Source: an uncultured Clostridia bacterium (GTDB lineage Bacteria > Bacillota > Clostridia > Oscillospirales > JAAYOS01). Taken from it: DNA of 64,000 bases. A program made the translations under genes and the position numbers. A model generated the notes under the pieces. The model was not told where the DNA came from, did no database searches, and was given only the letters and a program-made list of their open reading frames with translations. Of this stretch, positions 23,175 through 63,309 are shown piece by piece; the stretch's first letter is position 1, and each line of letters begins with the position of its first letter. The stretch is from NCBI GenBank assembly GCA_947630675.1, contig CANRIN010000002.1, positions 1,531-65,530 of the forward strand. Direction: 5' to 3'.

Positions 23175-23246
23175 TCCCGCGGAGCCTGATGCAAAGCTGC
23201 GGTTTTGGGAATGTGTTTTGCATCGGAAGCAGGGACGGAGGATACT

Positions 23247-23747
23247 ATGGCGGAAGAATTTTTAACTCTTATGGCGGACTTGGACGAGATTTCGCAAAAA
23301 CGTCTGTCTGAGTGGTATGACACGCTGGCAAAGGCAGGATTTGTCGGGACACAGACGCCGGGGCTCCCTTATCACATCAGTTTGGCCTCGTTTCCTCTTG
23401 AGAGGGAGGAGAAAGTCGTTGGTTTGATGAAAAAAGCCGCCGCCGAATTCCCGGCAATTCCGGTCCACATCAACCATATCGGCATGTTCGCCGGAGGCAA
23501 GGTGCTTTTTGCCGCGCCCGAAAGAAACGCGCAGCTGGATGCGCTTCACGACGCGTGCGAAACGGATAGGGAACGCGTGTGGACGCCGCATGTCACCGTC
23601 CTGATAGACGAGCCGGAAGCGGTCTGCTCCGCGCTGTCCCTGTTTTTGCGGTCGTTTTACCCGTTTGTCGGAAATATCGTCCGACTGCATCTCTGCGCCT
23701 TCTGGCCAACAAGGGAGATAGCAGCCGTTGAGCTGGGCGGGCGGTAA
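23247..23747 (+). CDS. 2H phosphoesterase superfamily protein (LigT / 2'-5' RNA ligase-like)
   Basis: ATG 23247 after GGACGGAGG. Two H-x-S/T-x motifs are present (PYHISLASF and TPHVTVLID). Confidence 0.7.
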   Translation: MAEEFLTLMADLDEISQKRLSEWYDTLAKAGFVGTQTPGLPYHISLASFPLEREEKVVGLMKKAAAEFPAIPVHINHIGMFAGGKVLFAAPERNAQLDALHDACETDRERVWTPHVTVLIDEPEAVCSALSLFLRSFYPFVGNIVRLHLCAFWPTREIAAVELGGR

Positions 23748-23961
23748 GTCAGAATAGGCGGGAACATGGATATAGATATAATCTTGCGGAGCTTGATACA
23801 AAGCGGAGAAAAAATCGGAAGTTGCGCTTTTGCGTCGTGTTTTCACTTGAGATTTTTTTGGAAGATATACCGTACCTTTTTCCCGAAATATGCCCGCTTT
23901 ATAAATCGACTGACACGGAGCGATGAGGGTATCAGCGGGATTTTGATCTTGCTTAGATTTG

Positions 23962-24090
23962 TTTTCCCGACGGCGTGTATGGCGGGAAAACTCCTCTCGC
24001 GCAACGTGCGTCGAGACAGCGGAGCTGGCGAGGCGCGAAGCACAGCGCGAGGCTTCGTAAAGTTTCGCCGCGTAAGCGCCGTCCGCGCCT
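23962..24090 (-). repeat. partial copy of the long mosaic repeat (internal modules only)
   Basis: TTTTCCCGACGGCGTGTATGGCGGGAAAA, CTCTCGCGCAACGTGCGTCGAG and GAGGCGCGAAGC match modules at 31091.., 41241.. and 61889... Confidence 0.6.
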
Positions 24091-24208
24091 GTTCGCGCGG
24101 TTGAAGTTGGCGGCTTTGCCGCCAACTTCGCGCAGGCGGAATTCATTTCCGCCGAGCATTTTAATCGAAAGGGGTCCCCAAGCGGCGCAAAGCGCCGTTT
24201 GGGGAAAT
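24091..24208. repeat. three-hairpin element, copy 1
   Basis: GTTCGCGCGGTT, then H1 (24103..24129), TGCGCAGG, H2 (24135..24153), GAGCATTTTAATCGAAAGGGGTCCCC, H3 (24176..24204), then GGGAAAT. Alignable with 45402..45514 and 62165..62280. Confidence 0.8.
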
Positions 24209-30809: not shown

Positions 30810-30850
30810 AGCGTTCCTCCAAACTTAAAAGTCTTACCTGCCCGGTTTGT

Positions 30851-31036
30851 CAACAAAGCCTCGCAGAGAATGCGCCCGCGGACCTGTACCGCATCCGACC
30901 ATCTACCGGGCGCATCAGACCTCGGCGCTTCGCGCCGACGTCTCAACAAAGCCTCGCAGAGAATGCGCCCGCGAACCTGTACCGCATCCGACCATCTACC
31001 GGGCGCATCAGACCTCGGCGCTCCGCGCCGACGTCT
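30851..31036 (-). repeat. two tandem 93-bp units (2 mismatches) of a repeat module
   Basis: The unit CAACAAAGCCTCGCAGAGAATGCGCCC...TACCGGGCGCATCAGACCTCGGCGCTTCGCGCCGACGTCT starts at 30851 and 30944. A third start at 31037 switches to a different module. Confidence 0.9.
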
Positions 31037-31264
31037 CAACAAAGCCTCGCAGAGTTTCGCGCCAACGGCGCGAAATAAAGTCAAATCCGTAAATTTCGGC
31101 GGCGTGTACGGCGAAATTTACACCTCTCGCGGAGCGTGCGTCGATTTTCCGCCGAAGGCGGAAAACTCGGCGCGTAGCGGAGTGTTGCCGCCGGCAGGGC
31201 TTCGCTCTGTCCGACGGCCTCGCGGGAAATTGGTAAGCGAGCGAAGCGAGCGCGATTTCCCGCG
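31037..31264 (-). repeat. long mosaic repeat, full copy, directly downstream of the dapL stop
   Basis: Ordered hairpin modules AGCCTCGCAGAG / TTTCGCGCC..GGCGCGAAA / ATTTCGGCGGCGTGTACGGCGAAAT / ATTTTCCGCCGAAGGCGGAAAA / CGCGGGAAATTGGTAAGCGAGCGAAGCGAGCGCGATTTCCCGCG. About 75-80 percent alignable by eye with 41195..41378. Confidence 0.85.
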
Positions 31265-31268
31265 AAAG

Positions 31269-32474
31269 CTAAAAGTTTTCTTTTATCCGCTCGAGCGCGC
31301 GGAGCGAGTTCTCGAGCGTACCGAAGCTCGTGAGGCGGAAGTAGCCCTCGCCGCACGGTCCGAAGCCCGAGCCGGGGGTGCCGACGACCTGCGCGCGGTC
31401 GAGCAGCGCGTCAAAGAACTCCCACGAGGTCATGCCGTTCGGCGTCGCGAGCCAGACATAGGGGGAGTGTACCCCGCCGTATACCTCAAAGCCGAGGGCC
31501 TGAAGTCCCTCGCGGAGGGTCTTTGCGTTGTTCTTGTAGTAGGCGATGGACTCCATGGCCTGCTTTGCGCCCTCCGGCGTGTATATGGCCGCCGCGCCGC
31601 GCTGGGAGATGTAGCTCGCCTCGTTGAACTTGGTGGTCTGGCGGCGCGCCCACATCGCGCGGAGGCTCTGCCCGTCGAAGACAAGGTCGTTCGGTACGAC
31701 GGTGAAGCCGCAGCGCACGCCGGTGAAGCCGGCGGTCTTGGAGTAGCTGCGGAACTCGACGGCGCAGCGCTTCGCCCCGTCTATCTCGTATATCGAGCGG
31801 GGCATGTCGCCTTCGATGAAAGCGCAGTATGCTGCGTCGTAGAGTATGACCGAGCCCTCGCGGAGGGCGTAGTCGACCCACGCCTTCAGCTCGTCGTAGC
31901 CGATGTGTGCGCCGGTCGGGTTGTTCGGGAAGCAGAGGTAGATGATGTCCGCGTGCTCCTTCGGCGGCTCCGGAATGAAGCCGTTCGAGGCGACGCAGGG
32001 CATATAGATGAGCTTACTCCAGCGCTCGCCGTCAAAGTCGCCGGCGCGGCCGGCCATGGCGTTCGAGTCGACGTAGACGGGGTAGACCGGGTCGCAGACG
32101 GCGACGGCGTTGTCGCGGTCGAAGAGCTCAGCGAAGTTGCCGGTGTCGCTCTTCGCGCCGTCGTTGATGAAGACCTCCTCGAGCGCGAGGTCGACGCCGA
32201 GCGGCTTGTAGTCCTGCTCGATTATCGCACGCCGGAGGAAGGAGTAGCCGAAGTCCTCGCCGTAGCCCTTGAAGGTGGCGGCGCTGCCCATGTCCGAGAC
32301 GGCGGCGTGCATCGCGTCTATGACGGCGGGGACGAGCGGGAGCGTGACGTCTCCTATCCCGAGGCGTATGACCTCTGCGCCGGGGTGGCTCTCGAGGTAC
32401 TCGTTCGTCTTTACGCGGACGGTGTAGAAGAGGTAGTTTGACTGCATCTTGCGGAAGTTGTCATTCAGTTTCAT
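31269..32474 (-). CDS. dapL: LL-diaminopimelate aminotransferase
   Basis: 401 aa. N-terminus MKLNDNF..QSNYLF, plus SYSKTAGFTGVRCG (PLP lysine) and NNPTG. Adjacent to dapF. Confidence 0.9.
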   Translation of the reverse strand: MKLNDNFRKMQSNYLFYTVRVKTNEYLESHPGAEVIRLGIGDVTLPLVPAVIDAMHAAVSDMGSAATFKGYGEDFGYSFLRRAIIEQDYKPLGVDLALEEVFINDGAKSDTGNFAELFDRDNAVAVCDPVYPVYVDSNAMAGRAGDFDGERWSKLIYMPCVASNGFIPEPPKEHADIIYLCFPNNPTGAHIGYDELKAWVDYALREGSVILYDAAYCAFIEGDMPRSIYEIDGAKRCAVEFRSYSKTAGFTGVRCGFTVVPNDLVFDGQSLRAMWARRQTTKFNEASYISQRGAAAIYTPEGAKQAMESIAYYKNNAKTLREGLQALGFEVYGGVHSPYVWLATPNGMTSWEFFDALLDRAQVVGTPGSGFGPCGEGYFRLTSFGTLENSLRALERIKENF

Positions 32475-41171: not shown

Positions 41172-41194
41172 AAGTCTTTGCCGCAGTCCTTATA

Positions 41195-41378
41195 AGCCTC
41201 GCGGAGTTTCGCGCCGATAGGCGCGAAATAGATTAAAATCATTTTCGGCGGCGGCGTGTACGTCGCCGAAAATACCCTGCGCGTAGCGCGCGTCGAAGGC
41301 GGCGAAGCCGTCGAGGCGCGAAGCGGAGCGTTCTCGCGGCAAATTGGTAAGCGAGCGAAGCGAGCGCGATTTGCCGCG
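41195..41378 (-). repeat. long mosaic repeat, copy downstream of obg
   Basis: Same module order as 31037..31264. The segment TGGTAAGCGAGCGAAGCGAGCGCGAT is identical in both copies. Confidence 0.85.
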
Positions 41379-41403
41379 ACTTTTCTAAACGGGCCTTGCC
41401 CGT

Positions 41404-43910: not shown

Positions 43911-44215
43911 CCGTTTTGAGGAAAAAAGTTTTATTTTGCGGTGTGTGGCGCGGAGCCTGCGGCGGTGCGCTGAGAAGCCCGCTCTGCCGCCGCCGGAGGG
44001 CAAAATCGCCCTTGAAAGGGGCGCGGACATGTGATACAATATGCGTTAATTGAAATCTTCCGGCGGCAATATGCCGGAGGTGAGCGCGGGAAAGATGATT
44101 CCCGCGGCGCATTGTCCGCGCAGGGCGGCGCGGCATATACATATATGTATTATACACGCACGGGCGCGGAGATGCAAGCCCGTGCGGAAAATGTCCGCCA
44201 AAGGAGGACTTATCT

Positions 44216-45085
44216 GTGGAAAACAGCTATTCGACAGCGAAAAAAGTGTCGATCATGACCATGATAGCAAACGCCGTGCTGGCGGCGGTGAAGCTTGCGG
44301 TGGGATTCCTTGCGCACAGCGTCTCGGTGATAAGCGACGGCGTGCATACCGTCTCGGACGTCGCGACGACCGTGGCGGTGCTGCTCGGGCTGCGGCTCGC
44401 CTCGAACAGCGCGGACGAGGATCACCCCTATGGGCACCAGCGTATAGAGAGCCTTGTGTCGATACTGCTTGCGGTGGCGCTCGGCGGCACGGCGGTGATG
44501 ATAGGCGTGGAGGGCGCGCGGAGCCTGTGGTTCGGCGAACGCTCGGAGGCGTCCGCCGCCGCGCTCTCGGTGACGGTCATCTCGATCATGGCAAAAGAGT
44601 GGATGTTCCGCTACACCCGCCGCGCGGCGAAGAAGGTGAACTCGCTTTCGCTGATGGCGGACGCGTGGCACCACCGCACCGACGCGGTGAGCTCGGTGGC
44701 GGTGCTCGTCGGCGTCGGCGGGAACATGCTCGGCGTGTGGTGGCTCGAGCCGGCGGCGGCGATAGGGGTCGCGGTGCTTATCCTCAAGGCGGCGTTCGAC
44801 ATCCTGCGCGAGGCCATGAGCCAGCTCACCGACCGCAGCGTGCCGGCGGAGGAGCTTGATAAGATACGCTCGGTGGCGCTCGCGACGGAGGGCGTCCGCG
44901 CGGTGGATGAGCTGCGCGCGAGGATAAGCGGAAACGTCGCGTTCGTGGATATCGAGATAGCGGTGGATGCGGACATGCCGCTGCGGGACGCGCACAGGAT
45001 AGCGGAGGCGGTGCACAAGGGCGTCGAGGACGCGGGGCTGAGGGTCGAGCACTGCATGGTGCATGTCAACCCGTATGAAAAATAA
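44216..45085 (+). CDS. cation diffusion facilitator (CDF) family metal efflux transporter
   Basis: GTG start after AAAGGAGG. 289 aa with six TM helices. Motifs HTVSDV, ADAWHHRTD and a C-terminal cytoplasmic domain. Confidence 0.9.
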   Translation: MENSYSTAKKVSIMTMIANAVLAAVKLAVGFLAHSVSVISDGVHTVSDVATTVAVLLGLRLASNSADEDHPYGHQRIESLVSILLAVALGGTAVMIGVEGARSLWFGERSEASAAALSVTVISIMAKEWMFRYTRRAAKKVNSLSLMADAWHHRTDAVSSVAVLVGVGGNMLGVWWLEPAAAIGVAVLILKAAFDILREAMSQLTDRSVPAEELDKIRSVALATEGVRAVDELRARISGNVAFVDIEIAVDADMPLRDAHRIAEAVHKGVEDAGLRVEHCMVHVNPYEK

Positions 45086-45374
45086 GATTTCGCAGCGAAT
45101 CGCGGCGGGCAGACAAAGTCTGCCCGCCTTACCAATTTCCTGCGCTGCCGTCGGATAGGGCATAGCCTTACCGACGGCAGCGCTCCGCTACGCGCCTCGC
45201 CGTCTTCGACGCGCGCTTCGCGCAGTACAAGGTCGGGGCGCCGGCGCGAAGCGCCGAGGTCTGATGCGCCCGGTAGAGAGTCGGATACGGTAGAGGCGCG
45301 AGGGGCGCATTGTACACGCCGCCGAAAATGAATTTGACCATATTCGCCGCTTGCGCGGCGAACTCTGCGAGGCT
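45086..45374 (+). repeat. long mosaic repeat, inverted copy starting at the CDF stop codon
   Basis: Reverse complement aligns with 31037..31264 and 61855... It ends with CTCTGCGAGGCT (45363..45374). The gene-proximal module embeds hairpin GGCGGGCAGAC-AAA-GTCTGCCCGCC. Confidence 0.8.
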
Positions 45375-45401
45375 GTCGCGGCGAAGCCGCGCTCCGCTCC
45401 G

Positions 45402-45514
45402 GTTCGCGCGGTTGAAGTTGGTGGCAAAGCCACCAACTTCGCGCAGGGGCGATTCATTCGCCCCGAGCATTTTAATCGGAAGGGCTCCCGCGCGGTCGCC
45501 GACCGCGCGGGAAT
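45402..45514. repeat. three-hairpin element, copy 2
   Basis: H1 at 45414..45440, H2 at 45446..45464, H3 at 45487..45511. It ends 5 nt from the anti-sigma gene stop. Confidence 0.8.
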
Positions 45515-47186: not shown

Positions 47187-47229
47187 CAACAAAAATTGCC
47201 GCGCGTTGCGCGGAACGTGCGGCAATTTT
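47187..47229 (-). terminator. terminator-like hairpin downstream of the 47348 gene
   Basis: AAAATTGCCGC...GCGGCAATTTT with 11-bp arms. The minus strand continues TGTTGTC. Confidence 0.5.
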
Positions 47230-47289: not shown

Positions 47290-47341
47290 AGCCTCGCAGA
47301 GACTGCGCCCCTCAACTCGTTACGCCCCGCGATTTCCCGCG
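47290..47341 (-). repeat. miniature copy of the mosaic repeat (both termini, one internal hairpin)
   Basis: Minus strand reads CGCGGGAAATCGCG...CTCTGCGAGGCT, starting 7 nt after the stop codon of the 47348 gene. Confidence 0.7.
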
Positions 47342-61814: not shown

Positions 61815-61850
61815 CGGAGCCGGTACGCTAAGCGTACCGGCTCCGTTCTT
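61815..61850 (+). terminator. terminator-like 14-bp hairpin after the Rrf2 gene
   Basis: CGGAGCCGGTACGC-TAA-GCGTACCGGCTCCG followed by TTCTT. Confidence 0.6.
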
Positions 61851-61854
61851 CCCC

Positions 61855-62164
61855 AGCCTCGCAGAGTTTCGCGCAAAGCGCGAATAATTTCAATTATTTT
61901 TCCCGACGGCATGAATGCGCCCTTCGACTTGCTACGCGTCGAAACTTTCTACCGGGCGCATCAGACCTCGGCGCTTCGCGCCGACGTCCCAACATTGTAC
62001 GAACCGTAGAGCAAAATTTACACATCTCGCGTAGCGCGCATAGATTTTCCGCCGAAGGCGGTTCCCGCATTCTAATTAGCTCAAAGTCGGGCAATATTCG
62101 CAAAGCGAATATTGCGAGCGAGGGTTGTAAAATGTCGGATGAGGAATTGGTTCGCGCCCTCGCG
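61855..62164 (-). repeat. long mosaic repeat copy (distal part of a composite element downstream of the isomerase gene)
   Basis: Starts with AGCCTCGCAGAGTTTCGCGC. Contains TACCGGGCGCATCAGACCTCGGCGCTTCGCGCCGACGTC (identical to 30904..30942) and ATTTTCCGCCGAAGGCGG. Confidence 0.8.
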
Positions 62165-62280
62165 GTTCGCAGCGGTTAAAGTTGCTTGCCATAGGCAAGC
62201 AACTTTGCGCAGGCGGAATTTATTTCCGCCGAGCATTTCAATCAAAAGGGCTCCCACGCGGCCGCCGGCCGCGTGGGAAT
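62165..62280. repeat. three-hairpin element, copy 3
   Basis: H1 at 62178..62206, H2 at 62212..62230, H3 at 62253..62277. Conserved linkers match copies 1 and 2. Confidence 0.8.
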
Positions 62281-62331
62281 GGCGAAGCGGAGCGCAAGGC
62301 ACCGGCAGAGCTCTGCTCTGTCCGGTGCCCT

Positions 62332-62376
62332 CGCAACAAATAGGTTGCGGGCGAAGCCGGCAACCTATTTGTTGCG
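62332..62376 (-). other. 17-bp perfect hairpin whose one arm is the last codons plus stop of the isomerase gene
   Basis: CGCAACAAATAGGTTGC (62332..62348) pairs with GCAACCTATTTGTTGCG (62360..62376). The stop codon (62365..62367) lies inside the arm. Confidence 0.7.
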
Positions 62377-63309
62377 AAAGTTTAGCAGCGACTTTCCGAC
62401 GGCGCACATCGCGGCGGCCGCGGCCTTCGCGACGCCGTAGTCGTATATCGGGCTCTGCCACTGGCTGTAGAAGGTGTCCGCCTCAAAGTTGAACGTGCCG
62501 GAGTAGCCGACATCCTGCATGGCGCGGCAGAACTCCGCCCAGTTGAGGCGGCCGATGCCGGGTATCTGGTGGCGGTCGGAAAGCCCGTCGTTGTCATGGA
62601 CGTGGAGCGTTACGGTCCTGTCTCCAAGCTCGCGGAGCATATTTGCGGGCCCGCTGCCGGAGATGGCGGCGTGGCCGGTGTCGAGACACGCGGCAAAGCG
62701 CTTCTCGCCGCACATATCGTTCAGCGTGTCGATAAAGTCTATCATCTGGGCGGCGGAGGAGCAGGTCGTAGGCACGAGCTTGTGCGTGTCCGGGTCGGAG
62801 GCGAACATGTTCTCGATGCAGAGAGTGACGCCGGTGTCGCGGAGCGCGGGGAACATTGCCGCATAGAACTCGAAGTTGGAGCGGCGGCACTCCTCGAGGT
62901 TCCTTCCGTAGATGAAGCTCGGATGCATCGCCGGATGTATGACTATGTGAGGACATTCCATGTACGCGGAGGCGTAGATGGAGCGTATCGCGCACTTCAG
63001 CAGCGCGGGGTCGCGCTCGTCGTCGTAGACCTTGAGCGGGAACGGGGCGTGGCACTGGTATATCCACAGCCCGCGCTCGTCCGCGAGCTTCTTCACCTCG
63101 CGGAAGTACTCGGCAAAGGACTCCTCGTCGGCAAGCGCAAAGAGGTCGCCCGTCGGCGGGAGGTGAAACATGCCGTAATCGAGCGCCTCGAAGCCCGCCT
63201 CTGCAAAGGCGTCGAACGCGGCGCGGTGGCCGAACTTGACGACGAGCTCGTGCGTGGAGGTGCTCACCATGCCGCGAGCCGTACGTCCCTTAAAATACCT
63301 GTCTGTCAT
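62365..63309 (-). CDS. sugar phosphate isomerase/epimerase (xylose-isomerase-like TIM barrel)
   Basis: 314 aa. HAPF, CIEN and TLHVHDNDG...H..PG.G are metal-ligand motifs of the family. Confidence 0.85.
   Translation of the reverse strand: MTDRYFKGRTARGMVSTSTHELVVKFGHRAAFDAFAEAGFEALDYGMFHLPPTGDLFALADEESFAEYFREVKKLADERGLWIYQCHAPFPLKVYDDERDPALLKCAIRSIYASAYMECPHIVIHPAMHPSFIYGRNLEECRRSNFEFYAAMFPALRDTGVTLCIENMFASDPDTHKLVPTTCSSAAQMIDFIDTLNDMCGEKRFAACLDTGHAAISGSGPANMLRELGDRTVTLHVHDNDGLSDRHQIPGIGRLNWAEFCRAMQDVGYSGTFNFEADTFYSQWQSPIYDYGVAKAAAAAMCAVGKSLLNFRNK

Follow-up and report, generated by a model that had tools for sequence, protein, structure and literature searches.

The stretch of DNA analysed here (the window), 64 000 nucleotides (nt) of contig CANRIN010000002.1 from an uncultured Clostridia bacterium, carries arrays of hairpin-forming modules in six intergenic regions. 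These arrays are probably decayed, nested, and rearranged copies of an element like a MITE (miniature inverted-repeat transposable element), which inserts behind genes at terminators or stop codons, duplicates its target, and becomes part of the 3′ untranslated region (3′-UTR). The module families are multi-copy and keep an order and a polarity, their stems carry compensatory changes, their sites include ones that are empty in outgroups, duplications are found at their flanks, the module content turns over, and two subfamilies have matched ends. Judged from sequence, the arrays are a nested mosaic of separate modules on a core of about 135 nt, C-D-E-F-G-Z. An earlier sequence-only reading of the window had offered two explanations, a non-autonomous mobile element aimed at terminator or stop regions and a family of structured 3′-UTR or terminator modules. 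The first of these was largely right, given the empty dapL junctions of outgroups and the terminator duplications in relatives.

Repeats in the window

The motif CTCTGCGAGGCT, hereafter Z, occurs seven times in the window with at most one mismatch, against 0.72 expected, and none of 100 shuffled sequences reached seven. The motif search placed these sites at 30857, 30950, 31043, 41195, 47290, and 61855 on the minus strand and at 45363 on the plus strand. Self-BLAST and a repeat finder identified common sequence in six intergenic regions (23962–24190, 30850–31265, 41194–41379, 45086–45514, 47290–47341, and 61854–62377), all of which were read in the sense of the upstream gene and divided into modules A, B, C-D, E-F, G-Z, X, Hr, and I. 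The repeat sequences quoted in the sequence-only reading are therefore present and multi-copy. The gene identities that it gave also match: dapL, the homologues of which are named LL-diaminopimelate aminotransferase, encodes a class I/II aminotransferase and adjoins dapF, and the other flanking genes encode Obg, a cation-efflux (CDF) protein, a DUF6199 protein, and a xylose-isomerase-like TIM-barrel protein. Exact-protein look-ups for the DapL and Obg of the window found neither on record.

Module A is a long hairpin (TCGCGGGAAAT, a variable GC hairpin, then CTTACCAATTTCCCGCGA) and module B is a two-tier hairpin. C-D and E-F are shorter blocks with a hairpin at the end of each, and G is a hairpin with Z directly after it. 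X, at about 80 nt, is the best conserved module; Hr is about 130 nt and I about 75 nt.

Probable insertion at dapL

Evidence for insertion comes from the junction between dapL and the M42 peptidase gene, where the window has the following features.

31266–31276, minus strand: left copy of the apparent target duplication, ACTTTTAGCTT, including the dapL stop codon TAG (31271–31269) and matching ACTTTTAAGTTT.
31220–31265, minus strand: module A, TCGCGGGAAAT..CTTACCAATTTCCCGCGA, beginning 3 nt past the stop codon; the outer stem covaries.
31187–31218, minus strand: module B, GCCGTCGGACAGAGC..GCCCTGCCGGCGGC; 13 pairs, six with two or more Watson–Crick pair types.
31144–31179, minus strand: modules C and D, CTCCGCTACGCGCC and the hairpin TTTTCCGCC-TTC-GGCGGAAAA; the widespread core begins here.
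31100–31142, minus strand: modules E and F, GACGCACGCTCCGCGAGAGG and the F hairpin; part of the core.
31043–31087, minus strand: G and Z, TTTCGCGCC-GTTG-GCGCGAAA and CTCTGCGAGGCT; the 3′ part of the core, where the earlier reading ended.
30857–31038, minus strand: two tandem X-Z units of 93 nt (X 31038–30962, Z 30961–30950, X 30945–30869, Z 30868–30857).
30845–30856, minus strand: TTGTTGACAAAC, similar to CTTTTTGACAAG, the 3′ terminus that the element has in relatives from metagenomes.
30821–30832, minus strand: right copy of the apparent target duplication, ACTTTTAAGTTT, followed shortly by the ribosome-binding site and then the ATG (30809) of the M42 peptidase gene.

The array had been taken to end at 31037, but the two X-Z units, which are 98 % identical to each other by self-BLAST and the repeat finder, carry it down to 30857, and with TTGTTGACAAAC it ends at about 30845.

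The same junction was fetched from more distant lineages through homologues of the window dapL. Where the DapL protein is 87, 84, 73, or 70 % identical to that of the window, the dapL–M42 spacer is 18, 12, 1, or 25 nt, respectively; within the clade of the window it is 299 nt (locus L061, 99 % identical), about 390 nt (L063, 98 %), and 459 nt in the window itself. No repeat modules were detected in the 84 % outgroup loci scanned (L065 and L066), and each clade member has a different module set at the junction. In the window, the array lies between direct repeats (..AAAACTTTTAGCTT / array / ..GTAAGACTTTTAAGTTTGGAGG). The left copies are TTCTAAGTTT in L061 and TTTCTAAGTTT in L063, in both of which TAAGTTT is found after the dapL stop codon and again within the right copy; outgroup L065 has a single AACTTTTAAGGAGG at its empty junction. 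The flank repeat looks like a target duplication of about 10–12 nt that contains the stop codon.

Two further candidate duplications were found in the clade, at L044 (AAAGAATA) and L010. An outgroup comparison for that of L044 was unusable, as the nearest homologue outside the clade is 48 % identical. In L063 (4590–5215, assembly ERZ27249228), the M42 peptidase gene was called as 130 aa and there is a run of C's in the sequence; the short call is probably an assembly frameshift, not a pseudogene.

Probable terminator duplication by the widespread core

When metagenomes were scanned with the final 18 nt of G-Z, at least 120 stretches containing the 3′ motif of the core were returned, many of them labelled human gut, with G+C from 0.42 to 0.67. 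The E-F and G-Z profiles were found in them, with a single C-D match, and A, B, X, Hr, and I were in none of the matches listed; these five modules were found only in the clade of the window. The conserved unit, C-D-E-F-G-Z, spread widely among uncultured Clostridia of the gut, is about 135 nt, or about 195 nt with a 5′ hairpin and a 3′ terminus, and the window copies align to it. On one contig with the core, the encoded L10 protein is 91 % identical to its counterpart in a Candidatus Limivicinus metagenome-assembled genome (MAG), class Clostridia.

The upstream gene is co-directional with the core in 67 cases and opposite in 16. Read from the stop codon, the usual layout is a hairpin, a second hairpin (CTGTC(A/G)AAAAG..CTTTTTGACAAAGG), the core, CTTTTTGACAAGCTG, and then the first hairpin again, with more T after it. 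Exact flank repeats of 15–34 nt, at constant offsets of −180 to −251 and +8 to +33, were present in 19 of 67 distinct loci, and shuffled left–right pairs gave a repeat of 12 nt or more in 2 of 658. The repeated strings vary between loci and are therefore of host origin: in each case it is the terminator of the gene itself that has been duplicated. The 10 nt after the right copy contain 4.0 T, compared with 2.5 after the left, which is a modest difference. In the commonest type of element, the terminus CTGTCAAAAAG pairs with CTTTTTGACAAG. A second subfamily (L191) has the matching ends GTAGACAAAG and CTTTGTCTAC and is flanked by two diverged terminator copies. Module A may be the counterpart of the 5′ hairpin of these relatives, based on position and shape (TCGCGGGAAAT..ATTTCCCGCGA compared with TGTCGGAAAAC..GTTTTCCGACA).

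Compared with L104 and L097 (one locus, different samples), L170 has lost the left terminator copy, the 5′ hairpin, and C-D-E, and its F-G-Z starts 7 nt past the stop codon; as aligned, L170 shows one way in which a remnant could come to lie at a stop codon. Five IMG/VR viral or prophage contigs (L194–L198) each contain the 18-nt G-Z motif GCGAAACTCTGCGAGGCT once, and the element may travel with phages of these bacteria. An 8.3-kb metagenome contig (L135:1–8310) has inverted copies of the element at both ends. Since several other metagenome contigs begin or end inside the element, the repeats seem to break assemblies.

Order, position, and polarity in the clade

A 19-mer from X was scanned against a genome collection, identifying 40 loci in three species-level MAGs of uncultured Clostridia bacterium (Lapin-004, Lapin-022, and Lapin-003-2), isolate names that we take to mean rabbit gut. 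Syntenic stretches are 87–93 % identical between the window and these MAGs, and the window belongs to the same clade and is none of the three genomes. Using a nucleotide profile for each module, the window and the 40 loci (41 sequences, about 370 kb) were annotated, with gene context from simple codon-usage gene calls. This census contains 48 copies of A, 45 of B, 18 of C-D, 38 of E-F, 55 each of G-Z, X, and Hr, and 22 of I, in 72 clusters, with arrays reaching 8–15 modules. Across the clusters, the order A, B, (C-D/Hr/I), E-F, X, G-Z is nearly constant, and the ordered hairpin modules of the sequence-only reading were thus recovered by the profile searches. Its picture of a single element with fixed termini and variable cargo was not: the arrays are better described as nested mosaics, in which X is found in the F loop (most copies), in the A loop (six loci), or after Z as X-Z units.

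Of the intergenic regions, the clusters fill 24 of the 36 that are convergent, 23 of the 217 that are tandem, and 2 of the 31 that are divergent. Because the loci were picked for containing X, the densities are biased in absolute terms, but this does not affect which type of region is occupied. Polarity had been described as strict, and for A, B, C-D, E-F, X, and G-Z this largely stands, with 74 copies in gene sense and 9 opposite in tandem regions, but Hr (8 and 5) and I (1 and 7) are often antisense to their neighbours. These two modules seem to form a repeat family of their own, under different rules. At L038:5769–6076 and L026:4817–5186, module I is present as two or three tandem copies that are antisense to both flanking genes, with the other modules absent.

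At the five window loci for which a start 0–30 nt past a stop codon had been reported, the distances are 3 nt at dapL, 24 nt at obg, 4 nt at the CDF gene, and about 5 and about 3 nt at the lipoprotein and isomerase genes, respectively. In the 41 clade sequences, 23 of 31 good copies of A begin within about 9 nt of a co-directional stop codon. Several others have a small gene-specific hairpin between the stop codon and A. Three adjoin a gene start in antisense, and the statement that the repeat always begins at a stop codon was therefore too strong.

Eight orthologous sites were compared between species of the clade; all eight are occupied in both, and none has an identical module set. The sites are therefore old and their contents turn over fast. 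Empty sites, which had been named as a sign of mobility, are thus found at dapL in the four outgroup lineages but not among these within-clade comparisons, and recent movement of whole arrays is not supported.

Hairpins, terminators, and RNA function

The outer stem of A is Watson–Crick paired in 131 of 132 cells, with 12 distinct arm pairs (shuffled mean 0.83, maximum 0.91), and four of its positions alternate among GC, CG, AT, and TA. The F and G stems were aligned in 58 copies from unrelated metagenome contigs and two window copies. They are 96.5 % paired, compared with 81.4 % in shuffles, and slid registers all drop to 33–62 %; both sides have changed in 14 of 21 pairs, which was matched by none of 500 shuffles. 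The paired stem differences noted from the window alone are thus borne out, and the compensatory changes argue that the hairpins are kept by selection.

The evidence on which strand folds is mixed. In Watson–Crick-dominated columns, the sense orientation has 90 minority G-U pairs and 34 A-C pairs, an excess owed to Hr (53 and 11) and X (13 and 2), and one pair of the F/G alignment is G-U in 48 of 60 copies, but in module B the two are equal (9 and 9). Minimum free energy favours sense for X alone, and A, E-F, G-Z, Hr, and I are slightly better in antisense; with this mixed result, folding energy was dropped as an argument for RNA function.

The modules are not themselves shaped as terminators. 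The stems of A, B, D, F, and G carry a T-run on the 5′ and an A-run on the 3′ side (for example TTTCGCGCC..GGCGCGAAA), and none of these five has the GC hairpin with a direct T-run of an intrinsic terminator. A terminator scan placed true terminators downstream of Z (61845–61815 and 47213–47199). Among the hairpin modules it flagged the first Hr hairpin alone, together with weak sites at 30975–30953 and 30880–30862 (X-Z junctions), 41291–41279, and 24127–24140. The position of the arrays is thus after the stop codon and ahead of the terminator or, as with dapL and M42, between genes of an operon. Of the second explanation in the sequence-only reading, that of 3′-UTR or terminator modules, the hairpins with compensatory changes behind stop codons remain and the terminator shape does not. 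Rfam 15 gave no match in the window at the gathering threshold, and in 20 metagenome loci the element had none; with E relaxed to 10, two arrays yielded only sub-threshold hairpin noise. An origin in CRISPR, integron attC, tRNA, or tmRNA sequences was rejected, because a spacer architecture is lacking, no associated genes are in view, and Rfam gave no match.

Under another explanation, the modules are mainly a selected cis-acting 3′-UTR RNA, made up of hairpins that stabilize against 3′ exonucleases or tune translation termination close to the stop codon, and have spread mainly through duplication and gene conversion, with mobility secondary. The occupancy of all eight orthologous sites, the preserved stems, the excess of G-U over A-C, the pair that is G-U in most copies, and the start of A 0–9 nt past the stop codon in 23 of 31 copies are all consistent with it, and there is a precedent in repetitive extragenic palindromic (REP) sequences of Escherichia coli, which stall ribosomes when 15 nt or less from the stop codon (Liang et al. 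2015, as outlined in PMC12306157). It is nevertheless unlikely to be the main explanation, because the dapL site is empty in outgroups and carries the target duplication, and the host-terminator duplications of the relatives are locus-specific. Module content behind the same gene also varies freely between close species, arrays shrink to stumps of 23–52 nt with the gene kept, and neither the folding energies, where X alone is better in sense, nor the G-U and A-C counts of module B give a uniform sense signal.

Turnover of the arrays

Turnover is illustrated by the CDF locus, at which the module sets are as follows.

Window: A, B, X, G-Z.
L034: A, B, C-D, Hr, I, X, G-Z, then the terminator.
L051 group: A, B, E-F, G-Z.
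L050 and L058: 23 nt of A joined to the terminator across the microhomology GCAG.

Microhomology at a deletion is also seen with GAAATCGCG and GAAAGTCGCG. The 52-nt miniature behind the lipoprotein gene of the window (47290–47341) is, by its make-up, a deletion derivative; A and X fragments are fused in it, and the orthologous site in L013 has about 400 nt (Hr, C-D, E-F, X, G-Z). The orthologous loci L026 and L038 share an identical 81-nt X, but one species has it in the A loop and the other in the F loop, with A hairpins of different subtypes. The processes visible in these comparisons are short-homology deletion, tandem duplication, and nesting, with inter-locus exchange probable. In the relatives L034 (2979–4674), L050 (2582–4129), L055, and L058, an extra gene of 515 aa with no Pfam match lies between the CDF gene and rplU; it is not in the window (43938–44246).

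Such processes could be proposed to account for everything, with no dedicated enzyme, through slippage during replication, switching of template at hairpins, and ectopic recombination of existing copies. The tandem 93-nt units and the microhomology deletions would be expected under this explanation, the A types of L026 and L038 are too unlike for vertical descent, and the boundaries of X show no clean recurrent target duplication. It is, however, improbable as the whole explanation. It does not account for how the arrays first reached many unrelated genes, for terminator duplications whose offsets are constant in 19 independent loci, or for the matched termini of two subfamilies.

Insertion model

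Under the MITE-like explanation, the core would insert at the 3′ end of a gene, at or beside an intrinsic terminator hairpin or at the stop codon, mostly in the orientation of the gene. The target would be duplicated on insertion, over about 11 nt at dapL and over 15–34 nt, the whole terminator hairpin, in relatives. A transposase may cut both bases of the hairpin; in an extruded palindrome the cut points would be adjacent, giving a duplication of palindrome length. The T-run would polarize the target and so fix the orientation of the element. Because the upstream hairpin copy has a less T-rich tail, transcription presumably reads through the element, which would become part of the 3′-UTR or of an intercistronic spacer. 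Stable 3′-UTR hairpins might then be tolerated or useful and, by analogy with REP sequences, could have a stabilizing or translation-coupled effect on the upstream mRNA. In the clade of the window, an A-type 5′ hairpin, B, X, Hr, and I would have been added, partly by insertion into resident hairpin loops, after which the arrays would have been remodelled by microhomology deletion, tandem duplication, and exchange between loci.

The family is small, non-coding, multi-copy, and dispersed, as MITEs are, with 18–55 copies of each module in about 370 kb, the core in at least 120 contigs, and an unconserved small open reading frame (ORF). Target-site duplications, which the sequence-only reading had also named as a sign of mobility, were found at dapL and in the 19 of 67 relatives' loci described above (2 of 658 in the null comparison), but they are not general in the clade.

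Several results weigh against this explanation. A general test for direct repeats at the flanks in the clade gave no excess over shuffled pairs, the exceptions being dapL, L044, and L010. Matching termini, which bear on terminal inverted repeats, are present in two subfamilies, yet by a strict pattern the 3′ terminus motif follows Z in just 18 of the 67 relatives and in 5 of 65 clade copies. A test for covariation of the 5′ hairpin with the 3′ end did not reach significance across loci, owing to the dominance of one terminus type. The homology of A to the TGTCAAAAAG hairpin is a matter of position, shape, and 7 of 10 matching bases, and the clade arrays, though starting at the stop codon, do not have the left terminator copy present in relatives. 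With all eight within-clade sites filled, no recent movement of a whole element was seen. In the approximately 1.3 Mb examined, neither a transposase nor an autonomous partner with matching ends came to light. The sole pair of terminus motifs enclosing ORFs, at L140, was rejected as an autonomous partner, as it holds a GntR regulator and an ORF without a family. Transcription and RNA function of the arrays are predictions.

A more far-reaching form of the MITE-like explanation is possible, and is put forward tentatively. A widespread, undescribed family of non-coding mobile elements in gut Clostridia may recognize terminator hairpins by their structure, insert in fixed orientation between the stem and the T-run, duplicate the entire hairpin, and write new 3′-UTRs genome-wide; in one rabbit-gut clade it may have become a scaffold for modules nested in hairpin loops, with arrays that run from the stop codon.

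Comparison with known systems

Small interspersed hairpin repeats and MITE-like elements behind genes are a kind already known. What seems not to have been described before is, first, that the core duplicates a target of terminator length and, second, that the arrays of the clade are nested and anchored at stop codons. No report of an insertion sequence (IS) or MITE that duplicates terminators was found in the literature, and a literature string search with the Z motif in both orientations returned only primers and unrelated sequences. Together with the Rfam results, this supports the family not being one already catalogued.

In architecture, and in architecture only, the closest system is BOX of Streptococcus pneumoniae and Streptococcus suis (boxA-boxB(n)-boxC, with boxD, boxE, and boxF variants), which with RUP and SPRITE forms a set of families that insert into one another (PMC3049150). 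BOX elements are likewise composite, modular, non-coding repeats of Firmicutes, with terminal and variable internal modules, stem-loops if transcribed, and enrichment between convergent genes (PMC3049150). Their hosts are unrelated to the high-GC Clostridia here, where the modules are mostly self-contained hairpins in one orientation and the arrays extend to 8–15 modules. In addition, the duplication made by the core spans a whole terminator hairpin, whereas Croucher et al. report no clear evidence at insertion flanks (PMC3049150).

Long target duplications are known for IS1549 and IS1634, at 8–514 bp compared with the usual 2–12 bp, without a mechanistic model (PMC2266710). Palindromic repeats are known insertion targets (PMC1525189), with IS1397, ISKpn1, and IS110-type elements in REPs. 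The element shares with these both the long duplications and the use of palindromes as targets. Those IS are, however, autonomous and carry transposase genes, and their long duplications are not reported at terminator hairpins, whereas here only a non-coding element is known.

REP sequences and the bacterial interspersed mosaic elements (BIMEs) built from them raise another explanation, in which a domesticated REP-associated tyrosine transposase (RAYT) has spread short tagged palindromes. The sequence-only reading had proposed a search for such an enzyme, and a partial test gave no support: Escherichia coli RayT had no phmmer match in 435 kb of the clade (an estimated 10–15 % of each genome), and tblastn gave no credible match, the best (E = 0.022) covering 53 residues inside the CDF gene. 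To our knowledge, the single-tyrosine (Y1) enzymes of the IS200/IS605 type make no target duplications, and these are present here. The likeness is in GC-rich palindromes, arranged as mosaics near gene 3′ ends (<20 bp for REPs), mostly in convergent or co-directional regions, with some REP families within 'target palindromes' (PMC3733652), while G-T pairs hint at an RNA role and X contains GGTAG and CGTC strings. A REP is a 20–40-nt palindrome with an unpaired GTAG or CGTC end tag and a stem of 6–13 bp, CGTC stems being 8–9 bp with A/T first pairs (PMC3733652). An origin of this kind is very improbable, as no module has an unpaired tag at the end of such a stem, the GTAG of X is within the 33-nt loop of its second hairpin, its CGTC precedes a 5-bp GGCGC stem without A/T first pairs, and the modules hold one orientation with none of the alternation of BIMEs. 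The text of the 2013 REP survey contains neither 'Firmicutes' nor 'Clostridi-' (PMC3733652). REPs are described as stabilizing upstream mRNA and, when close to the stop codon, as lowering translation (PMC12306157, citing Liang 2015).

If the MITE-like explanation is right, the 3′ ends of many genes in abundant, uncultured Clostridia of human and animal gut have been rewritten by a single small family of elements. It would be a clean natural case of a terminator-targeting element with a hairpin-length duplication, and the link to the hairpin suggests a testable model. The differing module sets behind one gene in close species would also offer a concrete system for the evolution of bacterial 3′-UTRs. 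As a practical warning, the repeats seem to break assemblies and could be mistaken for small RNAs or terminators. No textbook principle is altered, hairpin repeats behind genes being known.

Other arrays in the window

The remaining arrays and associated features of the window are as follows.

41195–41379, minus strand: obg array (A 41379–41334, C-like and E-F 41294–41252, G-Z 41240–41195, with the Z variant CTCCGCGAGGCT).
45090–45374, plus strand: CDF transporter array (A 45090–45144, B 45147–45178, X 45233–45311, G-Z 45332–45374).
45383–45514, minus strand: Hr, beginning 4 nt past the stop codon (45519) of a convergent 332-aa gene.
47290–47341, minus strand: 52-nt miniature, in which the 3′ part of X, then Z, comes straight after the 5′ arm of A.
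47192–47229, minus strand: intrinsic terminator of the lipoprotein gene, downstream of the miniature; the scan flags 47213–47199.
61855–62377, minus strand: array behind the xylose-isomerase-like gene (5′ half: A-like 62377–62331, B 62325–62301, Hr 62280–62155, I 62148–62076; 3′ half: C/D 62061–62044, E-F 62040–61999, X 61992–61914, G-Z 61893–61855).
61815–61845, minus strand: intrinsic terminator after the isomerase array, a 14-bp stem and T-run, 9 nt past Z.
23970–24203, minus strand: partial array behind the beta-galactosidase gene (stop codon 24290), Hr 24203–24073 and then E-F 24012–23970.

The obg array is preceded by a small gene-specific hairpin (41412–41380), and its orthologue in L034 has an additional module B. 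In the CDF array, X takes the place of the 5′ arm of F. Since the Hr at 45383–45514 starts 4 nt after the stop codon of the convergent gene, it is to be counted with that gene rather than with the CDF array, and two arrays therefore meet tail to tail at this locus. The isomerase array, for which a start at 62164 had been given, begins at 62377, its proximal part carrying the A-like module, B, and Hr. A 15-codon ORF antisense to module I at 62076–62148 (MSDEELVRALAVRSG, with ATG after GAGGG) was considered, but its start or reading frame is lost in 19 of 24 copies and it is therefore not a gene.

The partial array behind the beta-galactosidase gene sits after a terminator-like hairpin (24262–24208). 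This is a perfect 25-bp inverted repeat with a 5-nt loop, right behind the stop codon, and is far longer than the other terminators of the window. Nearby, about 0.8 kb downstream of a GNAT acetyltransferase gene (23175–23960) has no gene call by the simple codon-usage caller, and the 22–24-kb stretch has the lowest G+C of the window, 0.56.

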